NCBI GenBank assembly: GCA_016748015.1
Contig: JAAOMT010000790.1
Location: 13,479-77,478 of the forward strand
Origin: Geosiphon pyriformis uo1
Lineage: Eukaryota; Fungi; Glomeromycota
Direction: 5' to 3'
Length of the DNA: 64,000 bases
Below the pieces are notes generated by a model, which had not been told where the DNA came from, ran no database searches, and saw nothing but the letters and a program-made list of their open reading frames with translations. The position numbers and the translations under genes were made by a program. Below are positions 8,915 to 36,853 of this stretch, one piece after another (within the stretch, counting starts at the first letter, position 1; each line of letters starts with the position of its first letter).

Positions 8915-9735
8915 TGTTACTCATAAAAATATAGGAAATATTATAGCATGATTATTAGCCAATCAGAAGTAGGTATAGTAAATGTGGAATTCCAGAATTT
9001 CTCTCAGGAATTGCAGGATTTCAAGAATTTCAGAATTCTCCAACAAAGAATCGCAGGATTCCAGAATTCCAAGATTCCTGTTATGAAGAATTGAGGAATT
9101 GAGGAATCTCAATTATGTATATATAGCAGCAGGACTAGAAGCTAAAAAGACAGATCTCTTAGTTTAGATTTAATCTAAGCAACTTTCCAAATTACAATCA
9201 TCTAATAAATAACTATTTGTTATCTCAAACTCATTTCCATTATCAACACTTCATGTTAATAGTAATTGATACTTAATCACACTAGAACAATAGCTCTTGA
9301 TCATGGCTATTGACAGAATACTAACTTGTAAATCACCTTGGCTTATTTTTTTTTTTCTTTATTTTATTTTTTTTTCTTTATTTTTTTGCTTTGATTTTAT
9401 TGTTGTTTACTAACTCTATTGAGGATTAACGTGTGGAACACTGACGTCAGGATAAACGTAACTGGTAAAAGACCCAGAAATAAGGGTAGAACACTCAATT
9501 GAGGATAGCTTACCAGGAAGAATACCGGCCATCAAGCTAAGAAAAAAATTGACGAAACTGTGGTTTCGGGAAGCTATGGAAAAAACTATCACCATTGAAT
9601 CTCTGTTCATTATACAAAGAACTCAACCAAACCCTTCAGATACCAAACCTTTAGATCATTGACAACGAGAATAGCTTTGAGCACCAAGTTACAGGTTCAT
9701 ATTTAATTCAACACCAGAAATTGTCACTTGTAACA
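8915..9735 (+). repeat. 5' LTR of element A
   Basis: TGTTAC...TGTAACA termini; aligns with 27987-28865; TATA-like gtatatatag near 9118. Confidence 0.95.
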
Positions 9736-9754
9736 TTTGGTGCTCCTTGTGAGG
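9736..9754 (+). promoter_or_regulatory. Primer binding site of element A
   Basis: TT-TGGTGCTCCTTGTGAGG directly after the LTR, complementary to a tRNA 3' end (CCUCACAAGGAGCACCA). The tRNA identity was not determined. Confidence 0.85.
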
Positions 9755-12700: not shown

Positions 12701-15700
12701 AACATACCTGTGAAACCACTATTGACGCCTGGGATAATGATGACAAAAGTGAAGCAATGCCAACCAGCTGAGAAGAAAAAGGGAAAGGAAAAGAGAAAGA
12801 AGAAAACTTATCTGGAAAAGCCGACGAAGCCACAGAAAAAATAACCAGTGACTGGGAAAGAGAATACTTACATAAGCCAGTGAAGGAGCCACCTTACATT
12901 CTCTTAAAATGTTAGAACTGCAAGAAAAAACTCTCTTCCATAGGAGCATGGATTGCACCAGACAAAAACTACTGGACACAAATCCACTAATACTGCAAAC
13001 CATGCCATAGAAAATGCTATGATTACCCAAAACAACAAGGCAAGTGGGACAACGAACCATGTCTTGCTTGCGGTAAACAGTTACTCGACAAAGGAATATA
13101 GAACAATATTCCTGGTCGAAGAGGAATGTGTGACACTTTGTGCCAATACACAATCCTCATCAGTGATTGGGTAAGTTGCAGCACACCAATAACAGCCGTC
13201 TGGCACCGAGCAATCTCTCGCTTAGAAGGTTATCCACATGACAAAGATGAAATCTGGCAAATGGCCAATGCCAAAGTAGAGGGCACTTTGTCCAGTGAAA
13301 TTCTGGAGATCAAGAACAACCCTCCAGAACCAACAGACATTGTTTTGGTTCTCAACCTGGATGCCTTTCTCAACTTAGAAAACAGCCCAGAAGAATTTCA
13401 TGAACACTATCAGAACTTAGCACCCACCAGAAAAGAGCAGGAACAAAGATTGAAAGAAATAAACACTTGACTATGTGACTATTGTTTGATTCCATGTGAC
13501 TTTCAATATTGTAATAAGTGTGACCTCATTTACAATCCACCACCACGCATAATCTACATGATCTCCGAAGAGAAAGAACCAATTAGCAGCTGTACATTGG
13601 AATTGAAATTGGAATCGATTTTCAATTCCAATTCAAACTCCGACAAGAACAATGATGAAAACACCGGTTCCAGCTCCATTCAAAATGGCATTAACAATGA
13701 CAACAATTCCAACTCAGATTTAAACTCTGATTTAAACTACGAACAATATATTGCACTCTCTGATCTCACTAAAGAACAGAAACTAAAATAGTTCAGTAAT
13801 AATAATGAGGGTATTATGCCAGAATGTGCACATGATACTAATGCTGGGTTCGATCTAAGATATCTAGAAAAAAATGCCATCAAATTGGAACCACATTCAT
13901 GCACCTGCATTGATCTGAAAATAGTGCTGGAAATTCCAGCAACAACAATGGTTTAATTAGCATTTAGGAGTAGTTTAGCAAAAAGAGGAATTAATATAAG
14001 AGGAGGAATAATTGATGTGGGATATGTAGAAAATATCATCATTATAATACAAAATGACTCAGAAAAGGCCTATATAATAGAGCCCAATAAAAAGATAGCA
14101 CAGGCAATATTTTTACCTCTGATTAGAGTAGCTCAGTTGGTATCAGTGGGAAAGAGAGAGGAATTAGGGATAACAGCAAGAGGAATACAGGGATTTGGGT
14201 CAATGGGTAGAATAGATGTACCAGTTAATATGGCGGAAGAAGAAATTGTTGGCCAAGGAGAAATTATCTCAACCAGTCAAGCTATTTCTATTCCACCATA
14301 TAGCCAGTACATGTTAGCAATAGAAAGGAAGGAAAAAAAGCAAGAACAGATTTTTGAAGCTGAAGCAAACCTTTGTGAATCAGAAAAGATTGGACTAAGC
14401 AATCTTCACATACCAGCTAAAAGCTATAGCTGCATAAAAATTCTCATCTACAACAACATTGGCAATGTCATCAACATACCAAAAAGAACCACCATCGGAT
14501 ATTTAACCACAGAAATAGAAGACCAACCATCAAACTCCATTCCAGATTTTCCACAGCTTTGTGGATATGTTGATATAACATCACAAATGATATATAAACA
14601 AAGCAAATGTTATTTGCTCCAATCAGAACAATTGGAACAAATGAATATGAGAAACTTGGATCCACTCCAAAGTATGCAACTTAAGATGTTGCTCAACAAT
14701 TTCAATGACATCTTTGCCAACAAAAATGAGTTTGGCCAAACTGATATTATCCAGCATCAGATCAAGACTAGAGATGCAATGCCAATTAAACAAAGAGAAT
14801 ACAGAATACCACCAGCTAGCCACGAGATTATCTGGCAAGAAATAAACTGAATGCTTGACAATGGGCTAATTCAGCCATCAATGAGCCCATGGTCATTACC
14901 AGTAGTACTCATTCATAAAAAGAATAGAAAAATCTGCTTTTGTGTGGATTATAGAAAACTCAATGGAGTAACTCGTGGAGATAGCTACCTCATTCCATGG
15001 ATCCAAGAATTATTCAATGCTTTTGGTGGAAACAAATAGTTTTCAATATTAGATCTGGACAGTGGTTACTGGCAAGTAGCCATGGATCCAGCTGACAAAG
15101 AAAAGACAGCATTCACCACCAGAGAAAGGAATTTTGAATTTGAAGTAATGTCATTTGACTTAACCAACGCACCAGCCACTTTCCAAAGGCTAATAGAAAT
15201 TGTTTATATGGGCTTATTGTGGAAATCAGTAGTTGTATACTTAGATAACACCAATGTATTCTCAAAAACATTTGATAATCATCTTCATAATCTTCAACAA
15301 GTGTTTGAAAGACTAAGAAGAACAGGATTAAAGTTAAATGCAACAAAGTGTTTTTCAGCAAAACAGAACTAAAATTTTTAGGACACATAGTCAGCAAAGA
15401 TGGCATCAAAACGGATCCAGAAAAAATAGAGATAGTAAAGAACTTTTCAGTGCCAACAAATATAACAGAACTGAAATCATTCTTGGAATTTGCCAGCTAC
15501 TATCAACATTTTATCAAGAACTTTTCTAAGATAGTGCAGCCACTCAACCAACTGCAAACCAAGAATACAAAATATGAATGGACAGAAAGTCAACAAGAAG
15601 CTTTTGATATTCTGAGAAGAAAGCTCATTTAAGCTCTAGTACTAATCTATCCAGATCACAGCAAACTATTCATCATCACCACTGATGCATCTGGCCAAGC

Positions 15701-15834
15701 ATTGGAAGCAGTACTATCTCAGAGAGGACCAGATGACAGAGAATATCCAGTAGCATATGCCAGCAGAGATTTAACACCAGCCGAAAAGAACTATGGAACA
15801 CTGGAACAAGAACACTTAGCAATATACTGGGCAG
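9798..15834 (+). pseudogene. Element A gag-pol, 5' part: Gag (capsid, CCHC knuckle), aspartic protease, Cys-rich domain, dUTPase, RT, start of RNase H
   Basis: Knuckle CHNCGKQRHIRADC; protease ILDSG; RT SPWSLPVVL, CFCVDYRKLN, LDLDSGYWQ, YLDNT; RH TTDASGQALEAVLSQ...YPVAYASR. Many stops and a few frameshifts. Confidence 0.93.
13810..14210 (+). pseudogene. dUTPase domain of element A
   Basis: All five trimeric dUTPase motifs in order: AGFDL, RSSLA, GIIDVGY, IAQAIF, RGIQGFGSMG; one internal stop. Confidence 0.93.
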
Positions 15835-16847
15835 TGTTACCAATAGAATTTTAGCTATTAATTAGCATAAAATTACCCTTATAATTCCTATAATTCATTA
15901 GTATATTAATATTATTTCAAATTATTATTTATTATTTAATCAATTATCACATATCACGATTCAAGTAAAATAATCTAATTAGTATAACAGAAAGTAAGAT
16001 GATCAAATTACACAATACTCTGAACTTTGTAACATTCAAAAATTTGCTGAAATTTACAGAAATTCGCCGAAATTTATAAGAAATTTGCCGAAATTTACAG
16101 AAATTCGCTGAAATTATGAATAGTTCACCCAAATTAATCAATAGTTCAGTGAAATAACTTGTAGTTCATCAAAATGTATCTTTAGTTTGCTGGAATTTGG
16201 GCAAAGAAAAAAAAGTGCAAGTTCATAAACTAGTATTACAACAAGTTGTATAAAAGAAGAGCTTTTCTCTTCTAGAAAATGTATCTTACTTTAGATTTAT
16301 TACTTAGAACCATTTCTACACACATAAAAAGAAATAAATACCAAATAATTTGAAAAACCAAATTCTTTAATTATTGCTCTTGGAAAATCCCCAAAAACCA
16401 ACTAACATTTCGAAATTGATTAGCTACCAATTTCAGTAAACTGTTAGTGACTTCAGGTCTGGATAGAAAACGTTTCTCTTGATAAAATTCTATTTCTTTT
16501 ACATTTCTTTTATTTTCTTTTATTTTTCTTACTATAATCATTAGGGTAGCCTACAGACAAGATTCCTGTAGAAGAGTTGACTTTTACAGCAAAGTAATTA
16601 CACATTTTTAGTAAGCTTCCAGATGAGCAATTCTTGGGAAAGAGTTGACATTTACTACAATGTAACTACACAAAGCAATTGGCAAGGAATTGGCCATTCC
16701 ACTTATAAGCCCAGCAGTTCAAATTATAGAAGATAATTTGAAGATAAATTCAGTTATTGGAGGTTCAACTACTTCCTGAAAACGTGAATTCACAGCAAAT
16801 CAACATTACCAACATTTAAGAAAAGAGACCAAAAACCTCCAGTAACA
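15835..16847 (+). repeat. 5' LTR of element B
   Basis: TGTTAC...GTAACA; matches 24687-25626; followed by PBS TTTGGTGCTCTCCCACGG. Confidence 0.96.
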
Positions 16848-16892
16848 TTTGGTGCTCTCCCACGGAAATAACACAGCAACAACAAATTCAAA

Positions 16893-19800
16893 ATGGCGAC
16901 CACACCAGACACAGCAACTCTAGAGTATTACCAGTCAATATACACTTACTGCAAGCAAAGATTCAACATTCCAGACAGAATTGAAATTGTAAAGAAATCA
17001 GTATACCAATATATTGAAAACCACATCAACAATTATCTTTTTGGAAACTACAACATTTCAGAAGTTAGAAGCAACCTCTACAATAATTTAGTGCATCATT
17101 CACATTTGGGAACAGAAGACCTGAACAGTGAAACATTTGCTACCTATTTCCAAGAACTTAATTTTAATATTATTAAGTATTGTGAAGAAAAATACCCAGT
17201 ACAGTCTAAATACTCTTTTGACTTTGAATCAGAGACAGAAACAAGCAATAAAGGCAAACAAAGATTGAAGCAATACTCAAGAACTACTCCAAACACTCCA
17301 ACACTACAAAAGACAACTGCCAAACACTTGTAAACACCTAAACAAGGAACCAGTGTCAAATTACCACTTTCTATTACACTATTTCCAATTTCACTTGTTC
17401 AACCACAAACACCAAGTTCATCATTTAGCCGTTTTTCCAGACCAAAAGATTTTCAGTCACCTAGAAATCCTACTCAACAGCAGGAACCAATATCAACAAG
17501 TGCCAATATCATTAATTACTTACAGGAAAACGAAAGTAATCACTCAGAAAGCTTGGAAAGTAAAAAAACTGAATCAGAACCAGAAGAAATTCCAGAAAAC
17601 AAAAAAAAAATGGCAACTGCTTACATTGCAAAAATCCCAGAATTCACTGGTGAAGACAATGATACCAGTCCCCAAGAATGGCTTGACAAAGTTCAAAAAG
17701 CAGGAGATGCAAATAGTTGGATTGCAGCAAGAATGCTCAAAGCAATTCCTTACTTTCTCCAAGGAACAGCAGGAGAATGGTTTGAAAATTTAGAAGAACC
17801 ATTTGAAAACTGGCAAGCATTCAAAGATGCTTTTTTACAACAATTTACTGACAACAATACCTCTATCACTCTCAGAAACCGCTTTTGCAATATCAAACAA
17901 GAAACATCTGAATCTGTTATGACCTATCTTGGAAGATTTAACAAACTTCTCAGACGAATCCGACAATTAGAAACCAATGACTACTATTCTGATGCTCAAA
18001 TTCTGGATCAGTTTATAGCAGGGTTAAAAGACAAACTGATTAAGAAAGTCTGTCCACATGCTCCAGCAGACTTAGCAACTGCTATTAGACATGCAAAGAG
18101 CTATGAAATGGCAATGGAAGAAGCAAATCACACCAAGCTTGTAAACCTTGCAATTGGAGAAACCAGCTCAGTGGCTGAAAAGAAGATAAATCAACTCACA
18201 AAAAAAGTTGAAAGCTACTTCACAAACCAACAACAACAGCAACAACAACCACAAAGATATCAACCCCCACAACGACGCAACCAAAACAATTTTGGATCAT
18301 TATCTAACAACCAATCTCAAAATTGTTATTATTGTGGAATTCCAAAACACTGGAAACGAGATTGTAGGAAATTACAAAGAGACCAACAAAACAGGAGTAA
18401 TCAACATTACTCTTCACTACAACAATCCTATTACCAATCTCCACTACCAACTTATTATTCACCAAGACCACAAAATCAAAACAGTTACTATCCACCAGCT
18501 CCACAATCAATGCAGCAACAATATTAGCAACCTTTACCAATTCAGCCATATCAGACACCACTCACTCAACAATATCAAGTACCAGCAAGAAGATTGGTTC
18601 AACATAACCAATTCACACCCCAAAATCAATTGCAGAATAACCACAACAGAATCAATCCAAATAACCAGTTGGTTCCCCGAAATTCGGGCCAGCAAAGACC
18701 CAATCACTATCACACTCAACCCAGTTATCTTACAATACCAGAGAAATCGGATTTTCAACAAACTGTACTTTCTGAAGGTGAAATTGCAGCACCAAGATCA
18801 AACTTTTTCAACCACACCATTCCCCCAGCTCAAATTGCCCAAAATGCTAATCTGTCAGATATATTTTCATTTGAATTTGAGGCAAATGAATCACCATTTC
18901 TGCTTAGTAATGCAGCAGTCAATGAACAGAAAGCAATTACTGCCATGTACACAGAAGCTATAGTGGAAGGAAAACCCATTTGCTTAATCTTAAATAGTGG
19001 ATCAGCTGGAAGTATCATCACTTACCAGCTGATGCAACAACTCAAACAAAACATAGACAAACCAGCTCAAACAGTTATTGTTACAGCTAATGGTATGAAG
19101 AAGACTCCAGTAGGAGAAATTGATGATTTCCCTTTTTTAATTGATGGAATTACCATTCCAGTTAAAGTTCTTGTTATGGATGCACCCCAATACCAAGCTC
19201 TAGTCGGAAATGATTGGCTTCTCAAGGCCAATGCAAACCTGAACTGGGAAACTCAAAAACTTAAAATCTCATACCAAGGACAATATACCATAGTACCTGC
19301 AATCTGTGGTACCTTTAACAAATGATCAGAAAAAGCTCCAGTATTTGAATTTGAAGAGGAGAAAGAAATACCACTTACTGAAACCTACATGGCTCTTGGA
19401 TCAACATCCAATTGGGCTGAAGAAACTGAACAAGAGATTTTCGAAGAATCAAGGGGATGGAAGAAAGTTAGATATTCTACACCAAAACCACAGAAACAAC
19501 CACTCTATATTCCACTTAAATGCAAAGATTGCAACAAAAAACTTTCATTAATGGGAGCATGTATTTCTCCAGAAGAGGAATATGAAACTCGTACCTGTTA
19601 CTTTTGCAAAGCATGCCATAGAGAATGATTTGGATTTCCAAAAAGAAGTGGAAAATGAGACAACACACCTTGCCTTACATGTGGAGAAATACTACCAGAA
19701 GAATGCAATTGAATTGATGTAGCAATGAGAGGAGGAGTATGTGATCAAATCTGTCAATATGCTCTATCAATTTCGGAAAAAGTCAAAAGAGGGACACCAT

Positions 19801-22412
19801 TTGATGCAGCATACAACAGTGCTCTCAATAAACTTTACCACTACCCTCATAATACTGAAATAATTTTTGACCTAGCAATGACATTAATCAATGGAGCCAC
19901 TCAAAAAGATGTCCGCCAAATGAAAAAAGCTGAATATATTGAGTACACCATGGAATTAGCTGGATTTGATTATGAAGATAAAGTAGAAACCTACCACCAA
20001 ATTGCAAGCCACACATATCTGACCAAAGAAGCTCAAATTCAACAATTAGAGCAAATGAACATTCAATTGTGTAAAGAATGTGTTATGCCTTGTGATGACC
20101 AATGGTGTTTAGAATGTTATGCTCTTAGCATTCCTTTGCCAGATGAGAATGATGAAAATGAAATCGAATTTGGAGTATCTGAACAAGTAGAAGAACTACC
20201 AACCACTCCCATCTATCTTCTTGAAAAGCAACCACCTCTACAACTTAAATATTTTGACAACCATGGCCAAGGAATCAGACCAGAAAAAGCANNNNNNNNN
20301 NNNNNNNNNNNNNNNNNNNNNNNNNNNNNNNNNNNNNNNNNNNNNNNNNNNNNNNNNNNNNNNNNNNNNNNNNNNNNNNNNNNNNNNNNNNNNNNNNNNN
20401 NNNNNNNNNNNNNNNNNNNNNNNNNNNNNNNNNNNNNNNNNNNNNNNNNNNNNNNNNNNNNNNNNNNNCTTACTCTTAATCAACATTTCGGGTTTACAAT
20501 CAGTAAACAACAGAGAACAATTGGAAAAAAGTGAAAGAGGAACTCAAGGTTTTGGTTCAACTGGACGATTTACAGTTCCAGTAAACATAGCTCTTAATAC
20601 ACAAAATGAATCTCACCAGATTCTTCAACTTCCTCAGCCAATTACCATTTCACCTTTTGGAGAACATTACGAAATTTACACTTGCTCAAAACCCACCACT
20701 ACACAACAAATCTTTGAATCCAATGAACAAATCTGTTTGAAGCATGAAATATTAATTCCAAATGTTTATATTCCCAAAGGAATGAAAAAATTTTGAGTTA
20801 CATTCTACAACCCCAATAATTACCCTATTGTTTTATTAAACAAATTAGAAATTGGAATCATACACAGCAATATCTTTCAAGATGAAAACCCTCAAATTGT
20901 CTTTAATTTCATCGAAATTATAAAGCACACTCTACTCCCAAATCCAAATATTATTCTCACTACTGAAAACTACCACTTGTTAGAAGAAAAACTCTCTCGA
21001 ATCAATATAGATCCCTTAGAACCTCAACAACAAAGACAATTGAAACAATTGATAGCTGAATTTGCAGATATATTTGCAAAAGACAACAATGACTTGGGAA
21101 AAACAGACATTGTTCAACATCAGATCCATACAGGAGATGCTCTACCAAAACGTCAACAAGCTTATTGAGTGCCACCTGCCAGCCACCAAATTATCAGAGA
21201 AGAGGTCCAAAGAATGCTCAATAATGGATTGATTCAACCATCAAGAAGTCCTTGGGCCTTACCAGTAGTTTTGGTTAAAAAAAAAAACGGAAAAATTAGA
21301 TTTGTGTTAATTATAGACAACTGAATAGTGTTACAATTGGAGATGTCTACCCTCTTCCAAGAATTGATGACATGCTAGATGCTCTGGGAAAAGCCAAGTT
21401 CTTTTCAACTTTAGATCTGGAAAGTGAATACTGGCAAGTCGAAATGGACCCAAAAGATAGACCCAAAACAGCATTCACCACTCAAGAAGGAAATTATGAG
21501 TTTAATGTTATGCCTTTTGGACTTTGCAATGCACCAGCAACATTTTAGCGACTCATAGATGTTGTCTATGAAGGGCTCTTGTGGCAATTAGTAGTTGTTT
21601 ATCTTGATGATACTGATGTATACTCACCAAGCTTTGAAGCCCATTTCATTCACCTGCGAGAAGTTTTTCAACGACTATGAAAAGCAGGATTAAAGTTAAA
21701 TATTGAGAAATGTCACTTTGGAAAAACAAGTTTGATCTTTTTTGGACACATAGTTAGTAAAAATGGAATCAAACCAAATCCAGGAACAATCAATGCTGTC
21801 AAAAACTTTCAAACTCCCAGAAATACTACAGAACTAAGAGAATTTGTGGGATTAGTCTCTTACTATTGAAAATTTATAAAAGGATTCTCAGAAATTGCCA
21901 AACCACTAAATTATCTTACTAACAAAAACGTACCATACAAATGGACTGAAGAACAACAAAAAGCTTTTGAAATTCTCAAAACAAAATTGACAACAGCCCC
22001 AGTTTTTGCTTACTCAGATTTCAACAAACGATTCCAATTAGCCACTGATGTCTCACACATAGCATTTGGTGCTATCTTATCACAATTGGATGAAAATGGC
22101 CAAGAACAAGTTATTGCCTATGCCAGCAGAACACTCAAGCCAACAGAACTCAAATATGACTCAACTGAATTAGAAGCTGCTGCAGTTATTTGGGTTTTTA
22201 AACATTTTCAACAATATCTGAAAAATGGAAAAGAATTTGACATAATAACGGACAACATTGGCCTCAAATGGCTTAATAAAAAGAAAAATGAACAAAGTGC
22301 CAAACAGTTTCGATGGAATGACTTTCTAGCAGACTACAGATATATTGTACACCACAAACCAAGAAAACTACATACCAATGTTGATACCCTCTCAAGAATG
22401 AGACAAGATTAA
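16893..22412 (+). pseudogene. Element B gag-pol: Gag, protease, Cys-rich domain, dUTPase (core lies in the N gap), RT, RNase H
   Basis: IPEFTGE...PQEWL capsid; CYYCGIPKHWKRDC knuckle; ILNSG (mutated DSG); RGTQGFGSTG dUTPase motif 5; YLDDT; RH ATDVS...ELEAAAVIW...ITDN...NVDTLSR. Gag and protease are in one frame. Confidence 0.94.
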
Positions 22413-22469
22413 TACCAACAACAATTTCACCACAACTTACTAACTTACCAACAAAATAACCAAACAAGA

Positions 22470-23855
22470 ATGGATCCCAGAAACTACAGCAATCTTAAAA
22501 ATTATTTGGAGATCCTTACCATGCCAGAAAACTGGTCTCCAAGTGAAAAACACCGCTTACAACACCAATCAAAACAATATTTCATACACCAGAACAAAAT
22601 TTATTATAAAAATCACAGAAAACCAAACCAGCCACTCAGATTAGTACAAGAGAATAAAAAAGAAACAATTTTATACAACATGCACACAGATCTGTCTTCA
22701 GCACACTTGGGAAAAGAAGAAACAATTCAAAGAACCCTTGAACATTATTTTTGGCTTCACATGCAAAAAAACATTCGACAATATGTAGAATCTTGTGATA
22801 ATTGCCAAAAAAGAGGAGGAACTCACCCCACAGAACCTTTAAATCCAATCAAAATTGGACAACCTTTTGACAGAGTTGGAATTGATTTAGTCAGACCATT
22901 ATCTATCACAACCCAAGGAAATTGTTATATTGCAGTTGCAGTGGATTATTTTACCAAATGGCCTGAAACTAGAGCCATCCAAAGAGCAGATGCAAAATCA
23001 GTAGCAAAATTCATCTATGAAGACATTATCTGTAGACATGGATGTCCAATTGAACTCTTATTTGATCAAGGAACACATTTTGTGAACAACTTGATACAAG
23101 AAATTTGTAAACGGTTCAATGTCAAAAGACCTCTATCATCATCTTATCACCCTTAAACAAATGGACTTATAGAACATTTCAACAGAACATTGTGTGAATC
23201 TTTAGCCAAAGTCTCAACAGACTTTGAACAGGAATGAGATATCTTTATTCCATCAGTGTTACTAGCATACAGAACACTAAAACAAGATACTACAAAACAC
23301 ACACCATTTAATCTTACTTATGAAAGGACAGCAACATTACCAATTAATTTCACAGTGGAAACATACCCAGTACAACCAATCAATGAAGAAAACTTTCAAG
23401 AGACACTCCAAAGAAGAGCTTACACTCTTCTTAGTACACTGGAAGGAAAAAAAAGAATAGCAGCAGCTCATATTGAACATTCCCAAGCTTAACAAAAAGA
23501 AAGACATGACAACAAATTACCATCTATTACCAACGAATTTAAAGTTAGAAATAAAGTTCTCTTACACAGAACTAAGGCTGAAAAACAATGGAGTGGGAAA
23601 TTTGAAAACAAATAGGATGGACCATTTTATATTCACGAAATTCTAGGCAATAGATCATATAAGTTAAGACTTAATGACAAAATATTAGCAAAAGTTGCAC
23701 ATGGAGACAGACTGAAACACTATTATTTCAGAAACAATCCTGAACCATTAATTCCACAAATTGGTACACATTCTCCTTTAATTAATTCTGAAGATATTCC
23801 CCGAAATTTAGAACCAATAATTATAATAGAACAACAACCAAACTTGAACACTTAA
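22470..23855 (+). pseudogene. Element B integrase ORF (HHCC, DDE core, GPY/F, no chromodomain)
   Basis: MH...AHLG...CDNC; RVGIDLV; VDYFTKW; FDQGTHF; GPFYI; several in-frame stops. Confidence 0.93.
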
Positions 23856-23998
23856 ATTTTACAATAATTCTCTACTAAAAACACAAAGACAAAAATAGTA
23901 AATAATTACAAAACACCCAAACCCAAAAACAAATAAAAACCCCATATCCAAAAAATAATTTTCTTTATTTTTTCTTTTCATAATTAGTCAATTTTATC

Positions 23999-24706
23999 AT
24001 GATTATTCCCCAAAATATTCAACAAATATCCCAAAAATTAATGTTAGCCTTGAAAACACTCCCTGACTTATCTATAACGATTAATGGAAGTCAAATTAAA
24101 TACATTCAGAAAGAAACCACAGCCCCAGTAGCAAATCATTTACAGAACTATCACCCCTATAGAAGAGAAACAAGAAGTCACTCTGAAAATAAATTACCAA
24201 GACTTTTGAAGCAGGCACTAGAAGAAAATCTGCTAATTGCCCCTATTGACATTCCACCAAATGCTACAATACAACAAAAACTACTACTACTTCTTAATGA
24301 ACAGAACAATGAACACACCCCTATCTATAAATACTTTCAAATTGGAAAAACACTTTATGAACAAAAACTGGAACTTGAAGCAACAAATCTCACTCCTGAA
24401 GTTATACAAAAACAAATCTACAATGAATTCAAAACAGCAGCTGGACCAACAAACACTTGCTACAAACTTAGAGCAGCTTTTAGACTCTATGATTTGTTTA
24501 ATACTTGTGAAAATATTCTACAAAATCCAATACTGCAATCAATGAAAGTCCAATACATTGGCAAACTCACAGAACTAAAATTTCAACAATTTTCAGACCA
24601 GATTACTTCAATCATTTTAGATCACTATCTCAATATTACAGATAGTGCTTGGACTTCGATGGAGCTCAGTCTTGAGGAGGAGATTATGTTACCAGTAGAA
24701 TTTTAG
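23999..24706 (+). CDS. Element B ORF3, 235 aa, unknown function, in the env position
   Basis: Open ORF between integrase and PPT, ending inside the 3' LTR; aligns by eye with element A ORF3; no obvious signal peptide or TM segment. Confidence 0.75.
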   Translation: MIIPQNIQQISQKLMLALKTLPDLSITINGSQIKYIQKETTAPVANHLQNYHPYRRETRSHSENKLPRLLKQALEENLLIAPIDIPPNATIQQKLLLLLNEQNNEHTPIYKYFQIGKTLYEQKLELEATNLTPEVIQKQIYNEFKTAAGPTNTCYKLRAAFRLYDLFNTCENILQNPILQSMKVQYIGKLTELKFQQFSDQITSIILDHYLNITDSAWTSMELSLEEEIMLPVEF

Positions 24707-25626
24707 CTATTAATTAGCATAAAATTACCCTTATAATTCCTATAATTCATTAGTATATTAATATTATTTNNNNNNNNNNNNNNNNNNNNNNNNNNNNNNN
24801 NNNNNNNNNNNNNNNNNNNNNNNNNNNNNNNNNNNNNNNNNNNNNNNNNNNNNNNNNNNNNNNNNNNNNNNNNNNNNNNNNNNNNNNNNAAATTATGAAT
24901 AGTTCACCCAAATTAATCAATAGTTCAGTGAAATAACTTGTAGTTCATCAAAATGTATCTTTAGTTTGCTGGAATTTGGGCAAAGAAAAAAAAGTGCAAG
25001 TTCATAAACTAGTACTACAACAAGTTGTATAAAAGAAGAGCTTTTCTCTTCTGGAAAATGTATCTTACTTTAGATTTATTACTTAAAACCATTTCTACAC
25101 ACATAAAAAGAAATAAATACCAAATAATTTGAAAAACCAAATTCTTTAATTATTGCTCTTGGAAAATCCCCAAAAACCAACTAACATTTCGAAATTGATT
25201 AGCTACCAATTTCAGTAAACTGTTAGTGACTCCAGGCCTGAATAGAAAACGTTTCTCTTGATAAAATTCTATTTCTTTTACATTTCTTTTATTTTCTTTT
25301 ATTTTTCTTACTATAATCATTAGGGTAGCCTACAGACAAGATTCCTGTAGAAGGGTTGACTTTTACAGCAAAGTAATTACACATTTTTAGTAAGCTTCCA
25401 GATGAGCAATTCTTGGGAAAGAGTTGACATTTATTACAATGTAACTACACAAAGCAATTGGCAAGGAATTGGCCATTTCACTTATAAGCCCAGCAGTTCA
25501 AATTATAGAAGATAATTTGAAGATAAATTCAGTTATTGGAGGTTCAACTACTTCCTGAAAACGTGAATTCACAGCAAATCAACATTACCAACATTTAAGA
25601 AAAGAGACCAAAAACCTCTGGTAACA
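24687..25626 (+). repeat. 3' LTR of element B (contains an assembly gap)
   Basis: Preceded by PPT GAGGAGGAGA; matches the 5' LTR. Confidence 0.96.
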
Positions 25627-25630
25627 GCAG

Positions 25631-25836
25631 TCATGAAATGGAAAGAATACTTGAGCCAGAAGTTTGAAGTATACACAGATCACAAAAGATTAACATTACT
25701 TCAAAAACAAGAATTTGGAGATAGAAGACAGTTAAGATAGAAAATGGCACTTGCACCATATAATTATATTATACATTATAAAAAGGGAAAAAACAATGAA
25801 AATGCTGACGGTTTGTCATGAATGAGACAAATCTAG
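25631..25836 (+). pseudogene. Remainder of the element A RNase H
   Basis: MKWKEYLSQKFEVYTDHK...IHYKKGKNNENADGLS*MRQI*. Confidence 0.9.
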
Positions 25837-25917
25837 GAACATTTCAACCCAAAATATAACAAAACCAGAACAATACCAACAAAACCAGAACAATACCAAC
25901 AAAAAATATAACAAAAG

Positions 25918-27289
25918 ATGAACATACAAAAATATTAACAACTGCAATATTATATAAACACTTAACAGTTCAAGGAAAATTTATCTCAAACAAAATGAAA
26001 GAATATTAAACAACAATTAAAATATTTTATCACTCACCAAAATATACTTTATCGGAAAAATAGAAGAACCAACCAGAGTAATTACAGAGCTAGAAAAAGA
26101 GACAATATTATTCAACATGCACTCAAATCCAACAGCAGGACACTTTTACAAAGAAGCAACCATGGAAAGAACCAAAAAAAGATACTATTGGCCATCAATG
26201 TATCCAGACATCATCTAATATGTTCAAAATTGTAATGCTTGTCAGCAAAGAGAAGGAATGAAACCCAGTAAACCATTAAGACCAATCAAAGTAGGACAAC
26301 CATTTGACCGTATTGGAATTAATCTAGTTGGACCATTAATAATTACCAGAGGAGGAAACAGGTACATAGCAGTAGCCATGGACTATTTCACTAAATGGCC
26401 AGAGGCGAAAGCAATTCAAAGAGCAGATGCAGAATCCATTGCCAAATTCGTTCATCAAGATTTAATTTGTCAACACAGATGTCTAAAAGAATTATTATCA
26501 GACCAAGAAACTCATTTTGTGAACAAAACATTAACAGAATTGAGCCAAAGATTCGGAATTAAGAGACCACTATTATCACTATACCATCCACAAACCAACA
26601 AATTAGTCAAAAGATTCAACAGAACATTGTGTGAAGCAATAGCTAAGCTCAGCCAAGAAAACCAAAACAATTGGGACATGTTGATACCATTAGTATTATT
26701 TGCTTATCGAACAATGAAGCAAGACACTACACAAGCAACACTATTTGAATTAGTATATGGTAGAACAGCAACATTACCAGTGGAGATAGAGGTCAACACA
26801 TATCCAACTGAACCAATAACAGAAGAGAATTTCCAAGAAACATTGTTAAGAAGAACATATGACTTAATAGAAACATTGAAAAACAAACAAAAAAGAGCAG
26901 CTAATAACATACAAAAATCACAAGAAAAACAGAAAGAAAGACATGATAATCAACTACCAAACAAACCAGTTGAATTCAAGATTAGAGACAAAGTACTCTT
27001 ATATTGTACCAAAGCAGAAAAACAATGGAGTGGAAAATTTGACCTCAAATGGGATAGACCATTTCACATAGAAAAAATTCTAGGAAATGGAGCTTACAAA
27101 TTAAGACTGGACAACAAAATCTTAACCAAAGCAGCATATGGAGATCAACTGAAACTATACCACAACACTATACTACCATCTACTAGTAATATTCCACAAT
27201 TAGAAGTACAAAGAATACTAGTTTAACCAGATCAGATTCCACAAGATTTGGAACCAATCATTATTATTGACAACAACACGTCAAATTGA
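25918..27289 (+). pseudogene. Element A integrase ORF
   Basis: MHSNPTAGHF...CNACQ; RIGINLVGP; MDYFTKWPEA; SDQETHF; clearly similar to the B integrase. Confidence 0.93.
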
Positions 27290-27313: not shown

Positions 27314-27973
27314 ATGGTAGACATGACAGGAAATATCAGAAAAATAGAAATTACAGACAACATTCACTCACTAGCACAACAACTCTTTCAATTGATCCAA
27401 CACCAGGAAATGAAGATTACAATCAATCAACAAACCATTCAATATCAAGATACTAGAAAGACATTGCAACCCAAAACACAGAAGAAAACTGAAAATACTG
27501 TGGACAAAATCATTATGAAAGTAAAATTAGCAATAAGAGAGTTGACAAAAGAGTCACTATATCAAAAGTTGACTAAAGAAACTTGGAATTGATAGATACA
27601 ACAATTTCCATGAAACTATTGTTATTTTTACTTGGAACAACACGTAAATATCCAAAATCTATATATTAATAAAACAAAGCAATTATTTGACAAAAGAATA
27701 CTACAACAATTAGAACATTTTGTGGGAAAAAACAACTTATTCACACAGGCCCGAGCTATATACCAAATACACACAGCATTTCAGAATAGACCAGAAATAT
27801 TACTCAACAAAGCAATAGATATGGTTACCAGTAATCAATTAGGAAAGATTATCAATGCTCAATTTAAAGAATTACAGACCCAAATAACACAAATAATTCT
27901 CGAAAACAAAATCCAGGAAATACTTCAAGAGGGGGAATTAAACAAGTTGGATTTCAATAGAGCTCAATATTAA
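27314..27973 (+). pseudogene. Element A ORF3 (homologue of B ORF3), disrupted
   Basis: Shared blocks: ITDNIHSLAQQL/IPQNIQQISQKL, ITINQQTIQY/ITINGSQIKY, ARAIYQIHTAF/LRAAFRLYDLF, LGKIINAQFKELQTQITQIIL/IGKLTELKFQQFSDQITSIIL. Confidence 0.75.
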
Positions 27974-27986
27974 AAAGAGGGAATAA

Positions 27987-28865
27987 TGTTACTCATAGAA
28001 ATATAAGAAATATATTAGCATGATTATTAGCCAATCAGAAATAGGCATAGTAAATGTGAAATTCCAGGATTCCTCTCAGGAATTGCAGAATTCCAAGAAT
28101 TTCAGGATTCCCCGACAAAGAATCACAGAATTCCAGAATTCCAGAATTCCTCTCAAAAGAATCGCAGGATTCTAGGAATTCAAGGATTCCTGTTGTGAAG
28201 AATCGAGGAATTGAGGAATCTCAATTATGTATATATAGCAGCAGAACTAGAAGCTAAAAAGACAGATCTCTTAGTTTAGATTTAATCTAAGCAACTCTCC
28301 AAATTACAATCATCTAATAAATAACTATTTGTTATTTCAAACTCATTTCCACTATCAACACTTCATGTTGATAGTAATTGATACTTAACTACACTGGAAC
28401 AATAGTTCTTGATCATGGCTATTGATGGAATACTAACTTGCAAATTGCCTTGGCTTATTTTTTTTTTTTTTTTATTTTATTTTATTTTATTTATTTTCTT
28501 GCTTTGATTTTATTGTTGTTTACTAACTCTATTAAGGATTAATGCATGGGGCACTGATGTCAGAATAAACGTGACTGGTAAAAGACCCAGAAATAAGGGT
28601 AGAACACTTGATTGAGAATAGCTTACCAGGAGGAATATCAGCCATCAAGCTAAGAAAGAAATTGACGAAACTGCAGTTTTGGAAAGCTATGAAAAAAAAA
28701 TTATTACCATTGAATCTCTGTTCATTATACAAAGAACTCAACCAAACCCTTCAGATACAAAACCTTCAGATACCAAACCTTCAGATCATCGACAACAAGA
28801 ATAGCTTTGAACACCAAGTTATAGGTTCATATTTAATTCAACACCAGAAATTGTTACCTGTAACA
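27987..28865 (+). repeat. 3' LTR of element A
   Basis: Preceded by PPT AAAAAGAGGGAA; aligns with 8915-9735 with extra repeat units. Confidence 0.95.
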
Positions 28866-28894
28866 CTGGAGCTCAATCTCTTTGGAAAGGATAA

Positions 28895-29537
28895 TGTTAC
28901 AGTTGAAACCCATAATTTTTATTAATTATTACATGTATTAGCCATTGATGTCATATAATTAGCCACTCTATTTTTAGATAGTGATCATTAACCTGATCAA
29001 TGACCTGACTATTGACCACTTTTATTAGCTATATAAGTAATGAGTCTCTTAGCTGTAGAAAATCATCTCTCAGACAAGAATCAAATAAATAAAAATAACA
29101 ACTTTCATCTCAATCACTCTCTTATTATTAATTTTCTTTTCCCTACCTTTAAGTATCTGAACATCTTAGGATAAAAGATTACTTGTTAGCCTTTTCCTGT
29201 TTGAATAATTGTAGTATTTGAAGACTATTTGTATAAACATGACTGAAGAGCACAATTTGATACCTGATATTGAATTCTAAGAGTTCCGATGTGAAGGCAT
29301 AGAATTAATACCAGCAGTGATCAATTGTTGACAGTACAAACTATTTCTCTACCTTCAGATTCCCAGTTACCTTTGAAAAAAATAGCGACTGAGATATTTT
29401 ATGAGACTGATCTCGCACATTGAATCCATACTCATTCAATTTGCTCTTTAAAGTTGAATTCTTCTTTGATTATTTCCATCACCCTACAATCCTGTTCTCC
29501 CTTGCTATCCATTAGCTTGTTACTCCAACTTGTAACA
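28895..29537 (+). mobile_element. Third LTR (element C) with a 29-bp PPT-bearing stub and no partner LTR
   Basis: TGTTACAGTTG...CAACTTGTAACA termini and TATATAAG near 29031. It is preceded by ggagctcaatctctttggaaaggataa, which resembles the pre-3'LTR ends of A and B. Confidence 0.75.
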
Positions 29538-32500
29538 GTATTATTAACAAATGCCTCAGCTGCAAAAAAAAAAGACATCCCACTATTACTTTTAACTCTG
29601 CCCAATTTAGCCACAAACTTAGTATTAATCCAATACTTACATAAATGCTCATGTCTTTTAATTTTACACAATAGTGGATCATAAAAAATCCTCCAAAGAA
29701 GGGGTGAAAAAACCTCACTCTAATTCAAACCATTATGTACTCTATAACCATTTGAGAGGCCAAAATTGGTCATCACTCTGTTAATTTTATCCTTGTAAAT
29801 ATTGCCAAAAAACTTGATAAACCTGTCACACATCTTGATATGCCATAGGCTAGCCTTTAAGTGGTACCAACTAACAGAATCATATGCCTTATACATATCC
29901 TACAAAACCAACCAAAGTTTTTTATTTTTCTTAAGAGTGTTTTCAACTACTGACCCAACAGCAAACACCAGAACCTGAGTAGAAGTACCCTTTAACACTG
30001 AAAAATTGTCACTGTGGAGAACACCAAACTTGCTACAAGCAAAAAAAATTCTATCAAAAAAGATCTTTCTGGCTGTCTCAATTAAAGCAATAGGGTAGAT
30101 ATTTGTAAGAATTTCATCCCAATCATAAGGTTTAAGGATCATCAAAATTCATGCTCTCTTCCATAAGGCAGACACTATACCAACAAAGAGACATTCATTT
30201 AACAGCACCAAAAGACACTCTATTACACTCTCGTCATCATGCTTCTAAAGTTTGTTCAGAATGCCAGACAAGCTAATGGTTTTGCCATCAGGCAGACCAC
30301 CAACAACTACAAACAACTCACTCATGTTAATTATATCCATTACACCAGAAAAAACATTATCTCTAACATAGTTCAATAGTACATACTGATGAGCCCAGAG
30401 ATCAGACAGCACAGAAAACACCACACATTTCCTTGTTCAACCTTTCATGATCCTGTTAATATTTAATCTTATTTCATCTGAATTCAATACCAGCTCATTA
30501 TTAACCACCAAGTGATCCAACACCACCTTTCAAAAGAGTCTATCTAAAACACTTCTGATCATACTACCCTTGTCCGAACAAAACTTTTTCATGTGTTTCT
30601 CAATAGCTGCTCTGATAGAAGCATTTTGCACCAATTTTGATTCATATATTTTGGACTTTCTGTACCCTTTTCTGACAATTGACAAATATTTAAGAATGTT
30701 TATCATTTTTTGATCAGCATGAACCATGTTTCTCAACACAAGAGCCTTATCAGTATCCAAAGTTGACCATTTTTCAACAAGGCAATCGAACCTGAAAGTG
30801 TTATCAGATTCCAACTTCTTGACAATTTTGACAACCAACAACTCCAATCCCAGAAATTTAGAAAACTGCTTATTTTTTGAACACTGAAAATCACTGAACC
30901 AAAGCCTAAAAAAGATCTCATCTGCAAAACCCACCAATGCTCCTTCCAGTAGCAACCACATAGCATCTAAATCATGATCTGCAGCTGTGACAAGAAACTT
31001 AATCTTTATTATCAGAATTCTGGCAGAGGAGCAATCTCTAAAATAAGACCACCCAGTACTGTCTGCATCTTTGATTTTGAACTTCCAACAATCCTTGTAA
31101 ACTTGTTTGTGCAAACCATTTAACTGAACATCCAGGAGTCCACTCAAACTGACCAATACCACCACAGCATTGTGGTCTATATCAAAGAAATCAGAAACAG
31201 AACCAACCCAATGTTTTACAACAGTAGAAAATAGACTCTTACTAACAAAAATGTAATCAATAGTCCTTTCAGCACTTCTTGAATTGCACCATATAGGAGT
31301 CTTAATCAAATAATGACTATTAAACAAATTAACCAGATCCAAACTCGAGCAGAACTTAAAACTTGCACTTCTTCCAGACCTGCACTTATTAAAATCTCCA
31401 CCCAAAACCATGAAAGTACTGGTGTTAACAGTCTTAGCAATAATAGAGTTAACCTCAAGTGCTTGTTCAAAATGGATGCCAGCAGAAACAGCAACATACA
31501 AACCAAGAACAGACACCAAGAGCTTGCTCTTGAACAAAAGCCACACCAAAATAATCTAACCAGGAACCACTTCAACCTTAGAAACATGATGAGCCAAAAA
31601 ATTGTTCATAACAACAGCAATACCAGCACCAAGACACCCAACATCCAAACCAGAAGTAAAAATCTGAACTTCATCATATTTATCTTTGATCCAAAGCCTA
31701 GAAGAAGACCTCAACTTTGTCTTAGTAATGAAAGAAACCGTATTCCTAGAACTTATATACTAGCAAATAACATCCACTTGCTTTGCAGGAACATTGATAC
31801 TCCGAACGTTGCATATAGCAAATTTTCAAACCAAACCACTTATTGGGATAAAGAAGATAATAGGGAGCCAGAACCAGAACACAAATAATCCAATCTGATT
31901 AACACTGAACTAATTGAAGCTTTCAAAGACATCATCTTTAACTCTAATTTACCCACCTTGGTGGTTAGAATCTTGGAGCTACTTAAACTGAAACCAAAAG
32001 CATCATCAACAACAGCAGAAAAAGAGGGAGCAGAAGGCTCTGATACACCATCCAAAACCATATCCAAGTTAACTTCTGAAGCCAAAGATGTAAAAACAGC
32101 CAAAGAAAGCTCATGAAAAACAGGTGTCAAAGGCACTAGTTCCACAAAGCTCAACTTTTTCACAATATCAAAAATCTAATCGGTTAAAAGCTTCAAAGAC
32201 CATTCCAAAGATGCCAAGTGATTGACCAAATTAGAGACACCATAGGAATTGGTACTGTTAGAAGAGGACCAAGCATCAATAGAAAATTTAGCACCAGGAG
32301 ATGGATCAGTACTTAAAGAAGATGAAGAACCCAAAAGAAAAGAGGAACCACCTGCAACTTAAGCCCAAGTTTTGCTACCAAAAAAAACCAGACAAATGAT
32401 AGATGTCTGCTTTTTTTTATAAATGTTGGCCAGGCAAATCCAATTTTGATCAGTCACCACCCACTTTTCATGAATTCCAGAATTCTCACCAACTGAACAC

Positions 32501-33900
32501 ATATCAGAAACATGACCAAATTGTTTATATTTGGCACAACATGCCAATGAAAGACTAGTCTAGTGCAAACTCACATTCTTGAAAACTGAAACAGAACCAA
32601 TAGCAGTCAACTTGGATGCTCTATTCTCAAAACAAATGACAGTACACCTATCTCATTTGTAAGACACAGGATTATGGCCAATAAAATAGGTTTTCTTACC
32701 ATAAGCCTCCACTAAAACAGAAAAATTATGGATCATGGTGCCAATTGAAAGAGTATAAAGCAAAGCCCAATGCTGATCCCTAAACACCCATGCTTGTTTG
32801 TCCTCATTTGCCAAAACCACATGTACAGAATCTTTTCTCATGAACATTAACCATTTAAAAGCAACCAGACTAGCCACTTTAGATGACTTAAACTCTATAA
32901 TAGTCTTCTGCCAAAGTCTAATTAACTGCATTTTAATCGAAATAATCTTGCCAAATTTGAAGAAAACTGATTTCATTACTGATCTAAAAAGATTCACTGG
33001 GATTTTCTTGATGATCACCTCTTAATTTGATCAGCTGTTTACCTTTCTAAAATCATTATTAACAAGAATTTTATTACTAATTGCCAGCACTTTAGCCTTA
33101 TTCAAACTAAATTCTGATGTAAAAAATGATCTGATAATCTCAAGGAATTTTGAGAGAGTGGAAGTATCCCCAAAACCATCCACTTAATAGAAAATTTTTT
33201 TTATTGAAATTAATTTATCATTAACTAACTTGTCAAGCACTGCAAAAAGCTCAATATCAAGTGCAAAAGATTTTGTTGAATTAAAACACTGCATTCTCAG
33301 GGCACATAATTCGAGCAGCAGCACCTGATTGAACCTAATATCTACATGAAAAGGAAGCTTCAGTGCAACATCATCATTACTTATACTTTCGAAAGAAGGT
33401 TGTCTCAGTGAGTTACCCAGTGCGTATATTCAAGTGCAAGTTTTTCTTGGCATAGCATTGTTTATGTTATCATCCTCACCTGATTCTGTGTAACTGGTCT
33501 CCTCAGCCATTGTGTTTGCCATGTTTTCTACATCTGAAAGATTGCTTATACTGTCAGCAACACTGCCAATCTCACTTCCCCAGGACACCCCAGACTTGAC
33601 ACCGACACTACTAATATTTTCTACACTTAACAGATCAGTAGACAAGTTGATTACATTACCAGCTACCGGCTTTTTTGGCTTTTTGTAGGATACATTATGT
33701 GAGTAGACTGTATTCACATGCTTATTTTTCACACTTTGACAGGTTCCCAAACCAGCCAAAATCAAACCCGAACCACTAGCAGAAAAGCCCACTGGTTCTA
33801 TCATGACAAATGAAGGTATAGTAGAAGAAATAGCTAATAGAGATTAGGAGAAAAAAAGAAAAAAAAGCGACTTTTTCAAAGTTATTAATGCTCTTATCAT
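29538..33900 (-). mobile_element. Non-LTR retrotransposon (LINE), 5' part: ORF1 and ORF2 (APE endonuclease, RT), truncated at LTR C
   Basis: ORF1 33804 to ~31840 with an RRM-like segment, a CCAKYKQFGHVSDMC knuckle and a coiled coil. ORF2 has GGDFN, TIDYIF, DIDHNAV (APE) and PIALIE, DMYKAYDSV, FSPLLW, AFVNNT (RT, degraded FVDD). Confidence 0.9.
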
Positions 33901-35644: not shown

Positions 35645-36853
35645 TTAAACTCCAAAGAATTTCGCTCCCATTAAGAGTTCAATCCCTTTAACGCCAGCAA
35701 CTTTTGCAATGCGAATTATCTGTTCATCAACGACTGATTTTTCCCAATTCTGAATCGCATATTTCATGGCACCAATCTTCAAATTAGTATCTTCATGCTT
35801 CCAGCCTAACAGAAACAATTCATCCCAATTATCGTGTCTCAATTCAGCTAACATCATATCAACAACGGTCTTTGCAAGATCTTTCAGTACACGCATACAA
35901 GCGTCTGAATAAAGTTCTGGTAATTTCTCTGTTGGAAATTCAACAGGGATTCTGTTGGTATAAAGATAATACACCAAAGCTCGAAACGTTTCATAAGTTA
36001 CCCCAGTGACAAGTACCTCCTTGTTTTTGGTTTCAATCCAATCACCATCATACATTTTGTCGAAATAGGTTGATCGTGCCGCCAATACCACTCGATGAGC
36101 ATTCAATCTCGAGCCACAACTAAAGGTGAACACGAGATCAGATAATCGCGTATTATCGAAGAGGGTTTCGAAAAAGGAAGTGTCTTGAATCTTTTCCGAG
36201 ATTAATAAATTTGTCTCGACAATTTGGTCAGAGGAAAGTTGATTCCAGATAGAAACTTGTATAATAAGGTCAATATCACCTTCTCTGGGATGATTCTCAT
36301 CGAAAATTTCATCAATTGGACAAATGTTATGGAATCCGAAACCTGTTTTTTGCATGGCGAAATCGAATTTACCTTGACTAATTTCGGTGGTGGCTAATTT
36401 CGTATACTTTTCTGGAAAGTTTAGTTCATCACGAATAACGTGAAATAATTTGATCTGATAACGTATGGAACGTTTATCCACCTTTTCCAATTTTTCCTCT
36501 TCACTTTGAAATGCCCAGAGATATGCACCGAGGGTTTTTGAAGGGACATAGGTATTTTTCGAAGGTGAATTGATGGTACAACCTAATCGCCATACAAAAT
36601 GTGAATTTGTTGTTGTTGAATTTTTTTTAACTTTTGCTTCAGCCGTTTTCCAATTCTTATTTGATGACATTGATGACATTGATGATGTTGATGTTGATGT
36701 TGATTTTGATGCTGGAGAAACAAAATATTCACTGTAGATAGTTGATGAAATTAAATTGTTATCTATCACATATTTGAAATGGGGAATTTTCCAGACAAAT
36801 GTGAATGAGCTTTCGTCAGTATTTGTAGTGATATTGTCAATTTTTTTTTCCAT
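35645..36853 (-). CDS. MATH-BTB/POZ protein (SPOP-like Cul3 adaptor), intronless
   Basis: N-terminal FTFVWKI...YSEYF...WRL...GFGF MATH-like strands; BTB SDLVF...AHRVVLAARSTYFDKM...FRALVYYLYT. Confidence 0.85.
   Translation of the reverse strand: MEKKIDNITTNTDESSFTFVWKIPHFKYVIDNNLISSTIYSEYFVSPASKSTSTSTSSMSSMSSNKNWKTAEAKVKKNSTTTNSHFVWRLGCTINSPSKNTYVPSKTLGAYLWAFQSEEEKLEKVDKRSIRYQIKLFHVIRDELNFPEKYTKLATTEISQGKFDFAMQKTGFGFHNICPIDEIFDENHPREGDIDLIIQVSIWNQLSSDQIVETNLLISEKIQDTSFFETLFDNTRLSDLVFTFSCGSRLNAHRVVLAARSTYFDKMYDGDWIETKNKEVLVTGVTYETFRALVYYLYTNRIPVEFPTEKLPELYSDACMRVLKDLAKTVVDMMLAELRHDNWDELFLLGWKHEDTNLKIGAMKYAIQNWEKSVVDEQIIRIAKVAGVKGIELLMGAKFFGV

Follow-up and report, generated by a model that had tools for sequence, protein, structure and literature searches.

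An old third cistron downstream of a separately started integrase in Ty3/Gypsy retrotransposons of Geosiphon pyriformis, and its predicted helical, apparently undescribed product

Plant Ty3/Gypsy elements have been described with extra ORFs in the interval from pol to the 3′ LTR (excerpts of PMC7264820). As presented there, the plant ORFs (those of Athila and Bagy2, and Grande gene23, RIRE2 and Retand) resemble the ORF studied here, designated as ORF3, in that they occupy the same slot in many copies, have an obscure origin, and have been proposed to act in the way of retroviral accessory proteins. The sense ORFs of Athila and Bagy2 are env-like, some with transmembrane domains, whereas ORF3 is a sense ORF with a predicted soluble product; the soluble nuclear ORFs of Grande gene23, RIRE2 and Retand are antisense, whereas ORF3 is sense (same excerpts of PMC7264820). 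ORF3 further differs from the plant ORFs in being fungal, in following a separate integrase cistron, and in overlapping the polypurine tract (PPT) and the LTR, and no Athila or Transposase_28 match was present among the Pfam results listed for it. A survey of fungal Gypsy elements, centred on chromoviruses in the sections available, reports an unexplained 'add. ORF' as well as a dUTPase between protease and reverse transcriptase (RT), as here, and can be compared with ORF3 by description only (PMC2864245). In bdelloid rotifers, LTR retrotransposons of dUTPase-bearing lineages likewise have an ORF3 slot with non-Env genes; these encode a GDSL esterase, a DEDDy exonuclease or small transmembrane proteins, whereas the fungal ORF3 has no enzyme motif or family match (excerpts of PMC5408684).

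A functional model may be found further afield, in VANC of the Arabidopsis VANDAL elements (Mutator-like), a fast-evolving TE accessory protein of a methylating host that acts on tandem repeats specific to its family (excerpts of PMC5735166) and that is reported to derive from MAIN-like proteins (excerpts of PMC13547354). The likeness would be one of function only, each LTR studied here having its own short-repeat cluster; VANC belongs to a plant DNA transposon, and we found no sequence or fold link between it and ORF3. The excerpts of PMC3248453 and PMC13524379 contain nothing on ORF3, and no description of the protein family was found in literature that included few subscription papers and no Repbase-type libraries. 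Additional ORFs at this position form a known class; the ORF3 protein family appears undescribed.

LTR sequences make up 41.2% of the G. pyriformis genome (excerpts of PMC11952901). We analyzed a 64,000-nucleotide stretch of this genome (the window, to which all positions refer unless stated otherwise), in which two Ty3/Gypsy elements are nested, element B being inserted in the RNase H region of element A. Both are on the + strand. The LTRs of A lie at 8915–9735 (5′) and 27987–28865 (3′), and those of B lie at 15835–16847 (5′) and 24687–25626 (3′, with an assembly gap at 24770–24889). The LTRs have TGTTA...TAACA ends, and a purine tract precedes the 3′ LTR of each element. The primer-binding sites of A (9738–9745) and B (16850–16857), each after its 5′ LTR, both start with TGGTGCTC; a tRNA gene search of the whole window found none. 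B is flanked by the target duplication GCAG (15831–15834 and 25627–25630). A has no target-site duplication (TTAT vs CTGG at its flanks). This suggests that A inserted into the 3′ end of a relative and that rearrangement came later. We considered a Ginger-transposon origin from the TGTTA ends and dropped it, since most Gypsy elements are described as having TGTNR ends (excerpts of PMC2836005).

The gene order gag, PR-RT-RH-INT was read from the translations of both elements, and Pfam matches in them include Retrotrans_gag/Ty3_capsid, Integrase_H2C2 and rve. In B, a decayed frame covering gag, protease, a Cys-rich region, a dUTPase-like domain, RT and RNase H extends over 16893–22412 and ends with TAA at 22410–22412. 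The interval between protease and RT (12400–14800 in A and 19330–20900 in B) contains a long Cys-rich region with several CxxC pairs, a domain that we take to be dUTPase-like from its motifs in both elements, and another stretch without assignment; for comparison, PF00692 was precomputed on gene model P0247. The gag frames have long extensions before the capsid Met (9798–10760 in A and 16893–17609 in B), possibly a matrix-like or second accessory domain, and Pfam gave no match for the tested part of the B extension. Both elements are decayed. The LTR pair of A shows 68 differences over 820 aligned bases, of which 64 are transitions, and that of B shows 12 over 820, all transitions. Stops number 14 in the 2001 codons of the gag-pol-int frames of B (within 17610–23855), against only these 12 differing sites in its LTRs; the template from which B was copied may already have been defective, or its LTRs may have been homogenized. 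Both 5′ LTRs contain a long pyrimidine tract followed by AG (9343–9423 in A and 16490–16544 in B), and in A a perfect TACTAAC branch-site motif lies immediately ahead of this AG; the tracts possibly mark a leader intron or a termination signal.

ORF3 occupies the env position of both elements. The 235-aa ORF of B (ORF3-B, 23999–24706, + strand) is an open frame, as had been predicted; its last 20 nt are inside the 3′ LTR, and its tail encodes a GAGCTCA motif and the PPT (24660–24686). The ORF of A (ORF3-A, 27314–27973, + strand) is separated by 24 nt from the upstream integrase frame, which closes with TGA at 27287–27289, and ends at the PPT. It spans 219 codons and is interrupted by in-frame stops at codons 93, 94 and 100, in agreement with the original prediction of a disrupted homologue. 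All four of the motif blocks said to be shared are found in both translations, and the two sequences align significantly (tblastn, 44/207 identities, 21%, E 3e-9): the local score is 126, compared with 40.4 ± 7.3 and a maximum of 94 for shuffled sequences, none of 1000 reaching 126. Profiles of the A-type and B-type families match with a profile–profile probability of 92.7% over 183 columns. The claim that there is no obvious transmembrane helix was also borne out, the 19-residue Kyte–Doolittle maximum being 0.88 in ORF3-B, where by hydropathy alone a hydrophobic N-terminal stretch is absent as well, and at most 1.29 in nine of nine family members; the C-terminal transmembrane anchor expected of an Env-like glycoprotein is absent from all nine. 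ORF3 is therefore not Env-like. Given the stop density of the gag-pol-int frames of B, an open frame of 235 codons would occur by chance with P = 0.19, so the openness of ORF3-B is no evidence of present function.

Integrase appears not to lie inside the Pol polyprotein in these elements, a peculiarity of the lineage. In A, B and a related locus, L002, the RNase H frame ends with a stop and the integrase begins with its own ATG (3/3). The integrase of B (22470–23855, + strand) begins in frame 57 nt downstream of the RNase H stop, and the decayed integrase of A (25918–27289, + strand) starts 81 nt, in frame, after the stop TAG at 25834–25836; in L002 the in-frame linker is 24 nt. The linkers (window positions 22410–22472 in B and 25834–25920 in A; 772–801 in L002) are A/C-rich, G-poor and unstructured, and the ATG is at the conserved integrase start. 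Integrase synthesis would begin either by re-initiation or by read-through of the stop. The same integrase Trp codon is TGA in B (23237–23239) and in L002 (1564–1566), where it is the sole premature stop in the three frames read, and TGG in A; this codon is probably a mutable site.

ORF3 is a real gene family, an old and conserved third cistron of a fungal Ty3/Gypsy lineage. Homologue searches returned 204 matches to ORF3-B and 108 to ORF3-A. Among the 120 ORF3-B matches listed of the 204, 119 are G. pyriformis gene models and one is the window's own protein; all 108 ORF3-A matches and all 25 longer matches are also from G. pyriformis. Among 1.84 billion cluster representatives, a profile search found 112 matches; ten of the 78 new ones were looked up, eight being from Geosiphon and two (F and G) from metagenome assemblies. 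Metagenome contigs yielded one related locus with query P0291 and none with alignment A2, and viral contigs searched with three queries yielded none. When sorted by best match, the fetched proteins form eight subfamilies (B1, B2, A, C, D, E, F and G), with B1 and B2 being 67% identical and the other pairs 24–42%.

The position of ORF3 was read directly in A, B and L002 and inferred for the other subfamilies from two signs. L002, a G-type locus, has RT–RNase H ending in a stop, an integrase with its own ATG and then, across a spacer of 316 nt, a 230-aa ORF3 that runs through the PPT into an LTR, so that ORF3 follows a separately started integrase in all three elements read as DNA. The first sign is that 26 gene models combine an integrase tail with ORF3: the integrase is clearly first in 17, the match edges overlap in seven, and the order is reversed in two. 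The second is the GAGCTCA motif with the PPT in ORF3 tails, which occurs in one frame in B-type (98/160), F (1/1) and G (2/2) proteins and in another frame in A (40/152), D (5/10) and E (1/4) proteins, with none in C (0/4). The motif is read as ELSL in B, F and G and as GAQY in A, D and E, and this reading in two frames indicates that the tail is constrained as DNA or RNA, not as protein. ORF3 evolves more quickly than the Gag capsid and the integrase, with identities of 21–30% as compared with 39% for the capsid and 56–58% for the integrase. Its retention across lineages with integrases this far apart implies long service to the element.

Selection was assessed at two levels. Nei–Gojobori ratios from the three DNA copies (A, B and L002) are 0.41 (B/L002), 0.21 (A/L002) and 0.49 (B/A) for ORF3 and 0.26, 0.20 and 0.24, respectively, for the integrase. 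These values are only rough, given a dS close to saturation and codon alignments that were fitted on protein; a dN/dS near 1, which would have spoken against the original prediction, was not seen. At the protein level, we used 27 B1 and 30 B2 copies, out of 56 and 51 with good coverage, gene models being biased towards open frames. Residues 105–205 hold 9/41 of the differences fixed between B1 and B2, compared with 109/231 of the rare changes (Fisher P = 0.003). The fixed changes also score as more conservative than the rare ones (mean BLOSUM62 +0.32 vs −0.65, P = 4e-4). As judged from these sequences, ORF3 is under purifying selection that is concentrated in residues 105–205, and the results indicate that it is selected in replicating lineages and decays after insertion.

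The constrained region corresponds to a helical core (residues 105–205 of ORF3-B, 24311–24613, + strand), delimited by alignment A5, column tallies and a pLDDT of 80–95. It consists of a Y-x-Y-[FY]-x-[IL]-G helix, a helix–G-K-[TN]-N–helix unit (K138, R158 and R162), and an N-x-x-G-K-x-T helix. AlphaFold2 on a 59-row cross-subfamily alignment gave a mean pLDDT of 73 and a pTM of 0.62; the N-terminus is predicted as a helix and a beta-hairpin at low confidence (residues 5–37, pLDDT about 55–63), followed by a disordered basic linker (residues 39–63). A first model, based on 25 close sequences (pLDDT 50), was set aside together with its fold search as too poor. The invariant columns are N152 (59/59 rows) and F167, with Y110 and L174 nearly invariant, and the conserved polar residues cluster in helix 133–148, the G-K-[TN]-N turn and helix 153–167. 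Basic residues recur across seven subfamilies at K/R138 (6/7), K150 (6/7), K/R158 (5/7) and R162 (majority, 5/7). The net charge is variable (pI 5.4–9.9 in nine proteins). Homodimer prediction scored 0.18 against a mark of 0.32, with the alignment not used.

Fold searches, which hardly probed the N-terminal 60 residues, gave no clear relative. Among 48,161 chains the best Z was 5.2, which is under the tool's usual background; after re-ranking, the top match (Z 6.0) was a designed protein. Foldseek against PDB and BFVD gave no match at E ≤ 0.001, and the best viral row was an uncharacterized phage protein (TM 0.28/0.36). Neither a helix-turn-helix nor ParB/KorB nor a plant filamentous coat protein stood above the others in the fold search with the better model. 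Three of its matches were rejected as background, namely sigma-F (Z 4.6), Orc6 (Z 5.0) and the C-terminal domain of CHD1 (Z 5.0). The influenza NS1 RNA-binding domain reached Z 5.7 with the first model only and fell outside the best 50 with the better one. The absence of a fold match does not prove a new fold; a predicted core without a solved relative is a target for structure determination. The structure prediction and profile search suggested for the original prediction thus yielded a confident helical core and no clear match to a TE accessory family.

Sequence searches gave one lead that is weak and in which homology is not established. Pfam reported no family for protein P0001 at E ≤ 0.1, ≤ 1 or ≤ 10. 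DUF1016_N (PF17761) appeared below threshold in 7/29 B-type copies, always in one register, with a best score of 15.8 bits against a gathering cut-off of 32.8; in a separate Pfam search the best E value was 0.0028. A balanced ORF3 profile scored 25.7 against an 11-sequence profile of the DUF1016 N-terminus, above 60/60 block shuffles (12.0 ± 2.1), with an hhalign probability of 14.7% and with the family having been picked after the fact. In the same register, the pooled non-B rows scored 21.3 compared with a shuffle maximum of 17.9; no single non-B subfamily was clearly above its shuffles, and the likeness failed with a single YhcG. DUF1016_N, the N-terminus of YhcG, resembles ORF3 over about 67 columns in one register, the common features being a Y[WF]xIG helix, a second helix, a G-x-x-x-N turn and a third helix ending in [FL]Y..[FY]; unlike ORF3, it is bacterial and fused to a PD-(D/E)XK nuclease. 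DUF1016_N may hold a helix-turn-helix. Unrelated families score equally, namely FtsQ (23/59 rows, E 6.7e-5) and Glypican (3/59, E 3e-5). PHROGs and NCBIfam gave weak matches only (phrog_23683 in 18/59 rows and FtsQ in 23/59), which we judged to be due to chance because they involve B rows only. The PDB sequence search gave importin-5 (E 0.06) with alignment A2 and nothing with alignment A5. Taken together with the evidence of purifying selection, the lack of a match to a described family supports the original prediction of a conserved, predicted soluble, non-Env accessory ORF.

How ORF3 is expressed may differ between elements. The integrase–ORF3 spacer of B (23856–23998, + strand, 143 nt) has 3 G and no ATG and ends in a pyrimidine tract and AG; the AG was found where predicted, at 23987, 11 nt upstream of the ORF3 ATG. 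It is the only site that passes our acceptor rule in the internal region of B (16848–24686), which argues that it is not there by chance, and one of 13 on the whole + strand. By the same rule, A and L002 have no acceptor-like site before ORF3. The proposal of an env-style splice acceptor thus holds for B as an acceptor-like site and, being limited to one of three elements, does not hold as a general feature. None of the fetched gene models joins upstream sequence to a B-type ORF3 start, so annotation lends the acceptor no support. No other ATG lies between the integrase stop and the ORF3 ATG in A or B, where the G-poor spacers measure 24 and 143 nt, respectively; the L002 spacer has two upstream ATGs and a TATA-like stretch. 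On sequence grounds, the candidate routes are splicing for B, re-initiation following the integrase stop for A and B, and an internal promoter for L002.

We tentatively favor, at less than even confidence, the reading that ORF3 is a predicted soluble helical protein that binds nucleic acid and regulates the LTR of its own family, as a trans-activator or an anti-silencer. The helix(133–148)–GKTN–helix(153–167) unit would contact DNA through its conserved Lys/Arg residues, the family-specific repeat clusters in U3 would be the targets, and the purpose would be to keep the element transcribed in a methylating host. We infer DNA binding, anti-silencing and trans-activation from the basic residues, the weak DUF1016_N likeness and the genomic context. 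Against this reading, the fold searches brought out neither a helix-turn-helix nor any other nucleic-acid-binding fold, the DUF1016_N score is well short of the Pfam cut-off, and the net charge is not basic in all of the proteins. The CpG observed/expected ratio is 0.11–0.25 in the elements, compared with 0.66–0.98 in host sequence, and in the related Rhizophagus TEs are CG-methylated (excerpts of 10.1101/2021.03.30.436303). The U3 of the 3′ LTR of A has a cluster of eight AATTCC (LTR positions 74–221), L002 has seven TCTTAA, and B has a GAAATT-type tandem, these repeats having been picked as the best of many 6-mers. U3 repeats are usual in LTRs, and host factors could bind them instead of ORF3. 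The support that CpG depletion, ORF3 divergence and the U3 repeats lend to an LTR regulator is circumstantial.

A serious possibility is that ORF3 is a cofactor of the particle or the pre-integration complex, which would bind the element RNA or the cDNA ends and load or escort integrase or help in target-site choice. Integrase made apart from Gag-Pol cannot enter the particle within the polyprotein, and this separate cistron makes a particle cofactor nearly as likely as an LTR regulator. The RNase H stop and integrase ATG are present in all three elements with ORF3 downstream, no chromodomain is found among the matches behind these integrases, and the position of the ORF3 ATG as the first after the integrase stop, beyond a G-poor spacer (A and B), suits coupled synthesis. 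However, divergence as fast as that of ORF3 (21–30% identity vs 56–58% for the integrase) is less expected of a fixed partner, and because the linkers of 57, 81 and 24 nt are in frame, read-through could still give an integrase fusion.

Less likely, in our judgment, is a role in counter-defense through a host protein or small RNAs, as an RNAi suppressor or chromatin-factor decoy, without sequence-specific DNA binding. Fast divergence around a conserved core agrees with such a role, as do the small-RNA and methylation control of TEs in Rhizophagus (excerpts of 10.1101/2021.03.30.436303), and the N-terminal region modeled at low confidence could be an interaction module. However, no known suppressor was matched in the Pfam, PDB or BFVD lists, and the NS1 RNA-binding domain at Z 5.7 came from the poor first model only.

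It is improbable that ORF3 is a captured coat or nucleocapsid-like protein of a filamentous virus, a non-enveloped stand-in for Env that would wrap the element RNA for movement in aseptate hyphae. The closterovirus coat family (PF01785) is the top language-model match in the ESM Atlas for two distant homologues (0.92 and 0.91) that are only about 30% identical to each other, and the size and helical content are similar. However, these matches share 150 and 138 of 256 features, where 170 is typical of true members, and their recognition scores (<2300) are below the Atlas's own reliability marks; the Atlas also gives a 98-member Mucoromycota cluster at 0.90. Neither PF01785 nor another coat family is among the Pfam matches listed, and the filamentous coats in the fold lists ranked low and numbered only two, a virga-like putative coat (E 0.62, probability 0.05) and the capsid of an archaeal filamentous virus (Z 4.4, rmsd 11.4). 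We regard this coat signal in the sequences as weaker than the DUF1016_N likeness.

A decayed Env, or a neutral stretch that the PPT and base composition have kept open, is a reading of ORF3 that is largely refuted already and very improbable, since the tail shaped by a cis DNA motif in two frames and the chance openness of B (P = 0.19) are outweighed by full-length open frames of about 200–240 aa with 24–37% identity in several subfamilies, a core conserved upstream of the tail, the selection signals, the confident predicted fold and the lack of a transmembrane stretch.

Returning to the LTR regulator, a fuller and more doubtful picture is that of three-cistron retrotransposons (Gag-PR-dUTPase-RT-RH / integrase / ORF3) in which ORF3 would found a new family whose fold is still to be solved and which possibly stems from a bacterial DUF1016_N-like domain, and would act as a sequence-specific anti-silencer or trans-activator co-evolving with its own LTR repeats, helping to explain the LTR expansion of Geosiphon. 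If ORF3 counters methylation, it would illustrate the way in which a fungal retrotransposon escapes silencing; if it loads a separately made integrase, particle building would be unlike that of textbook Ty3. Whatever its role, hundreds of G. pyriformis gene models annotated as 'hypothetical protein' are ORF3 copies and thus transposon genes, not host genes.

The rest of the window holds further features. Right after the 3′ LTR of A (28866–29537) are a GAGCTCA motif and a purine tract, together with a third LTR-like sequence, which spans from TGTTAC at 28895 to TGTAACA at about 29537. The − strand at 29600–33800 carries a decayed element with endonuclease-like and RT-like ORF fragments that we take to be LINE-like. 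The region at 6000–8900 is extremely AT-rich (GC 0.11 at 6001–8000) and contains an internal inverted repeat of about 770 nt with 67% identity. Host genes were recognized by eye from their translations: a MATH-BTB protein (35645–36853), exons of an arginyl-tRNA synthetase (41180–43067, − strand), an F-box protein (43279–44241) and a two-finger GATA factor (55776–57401).
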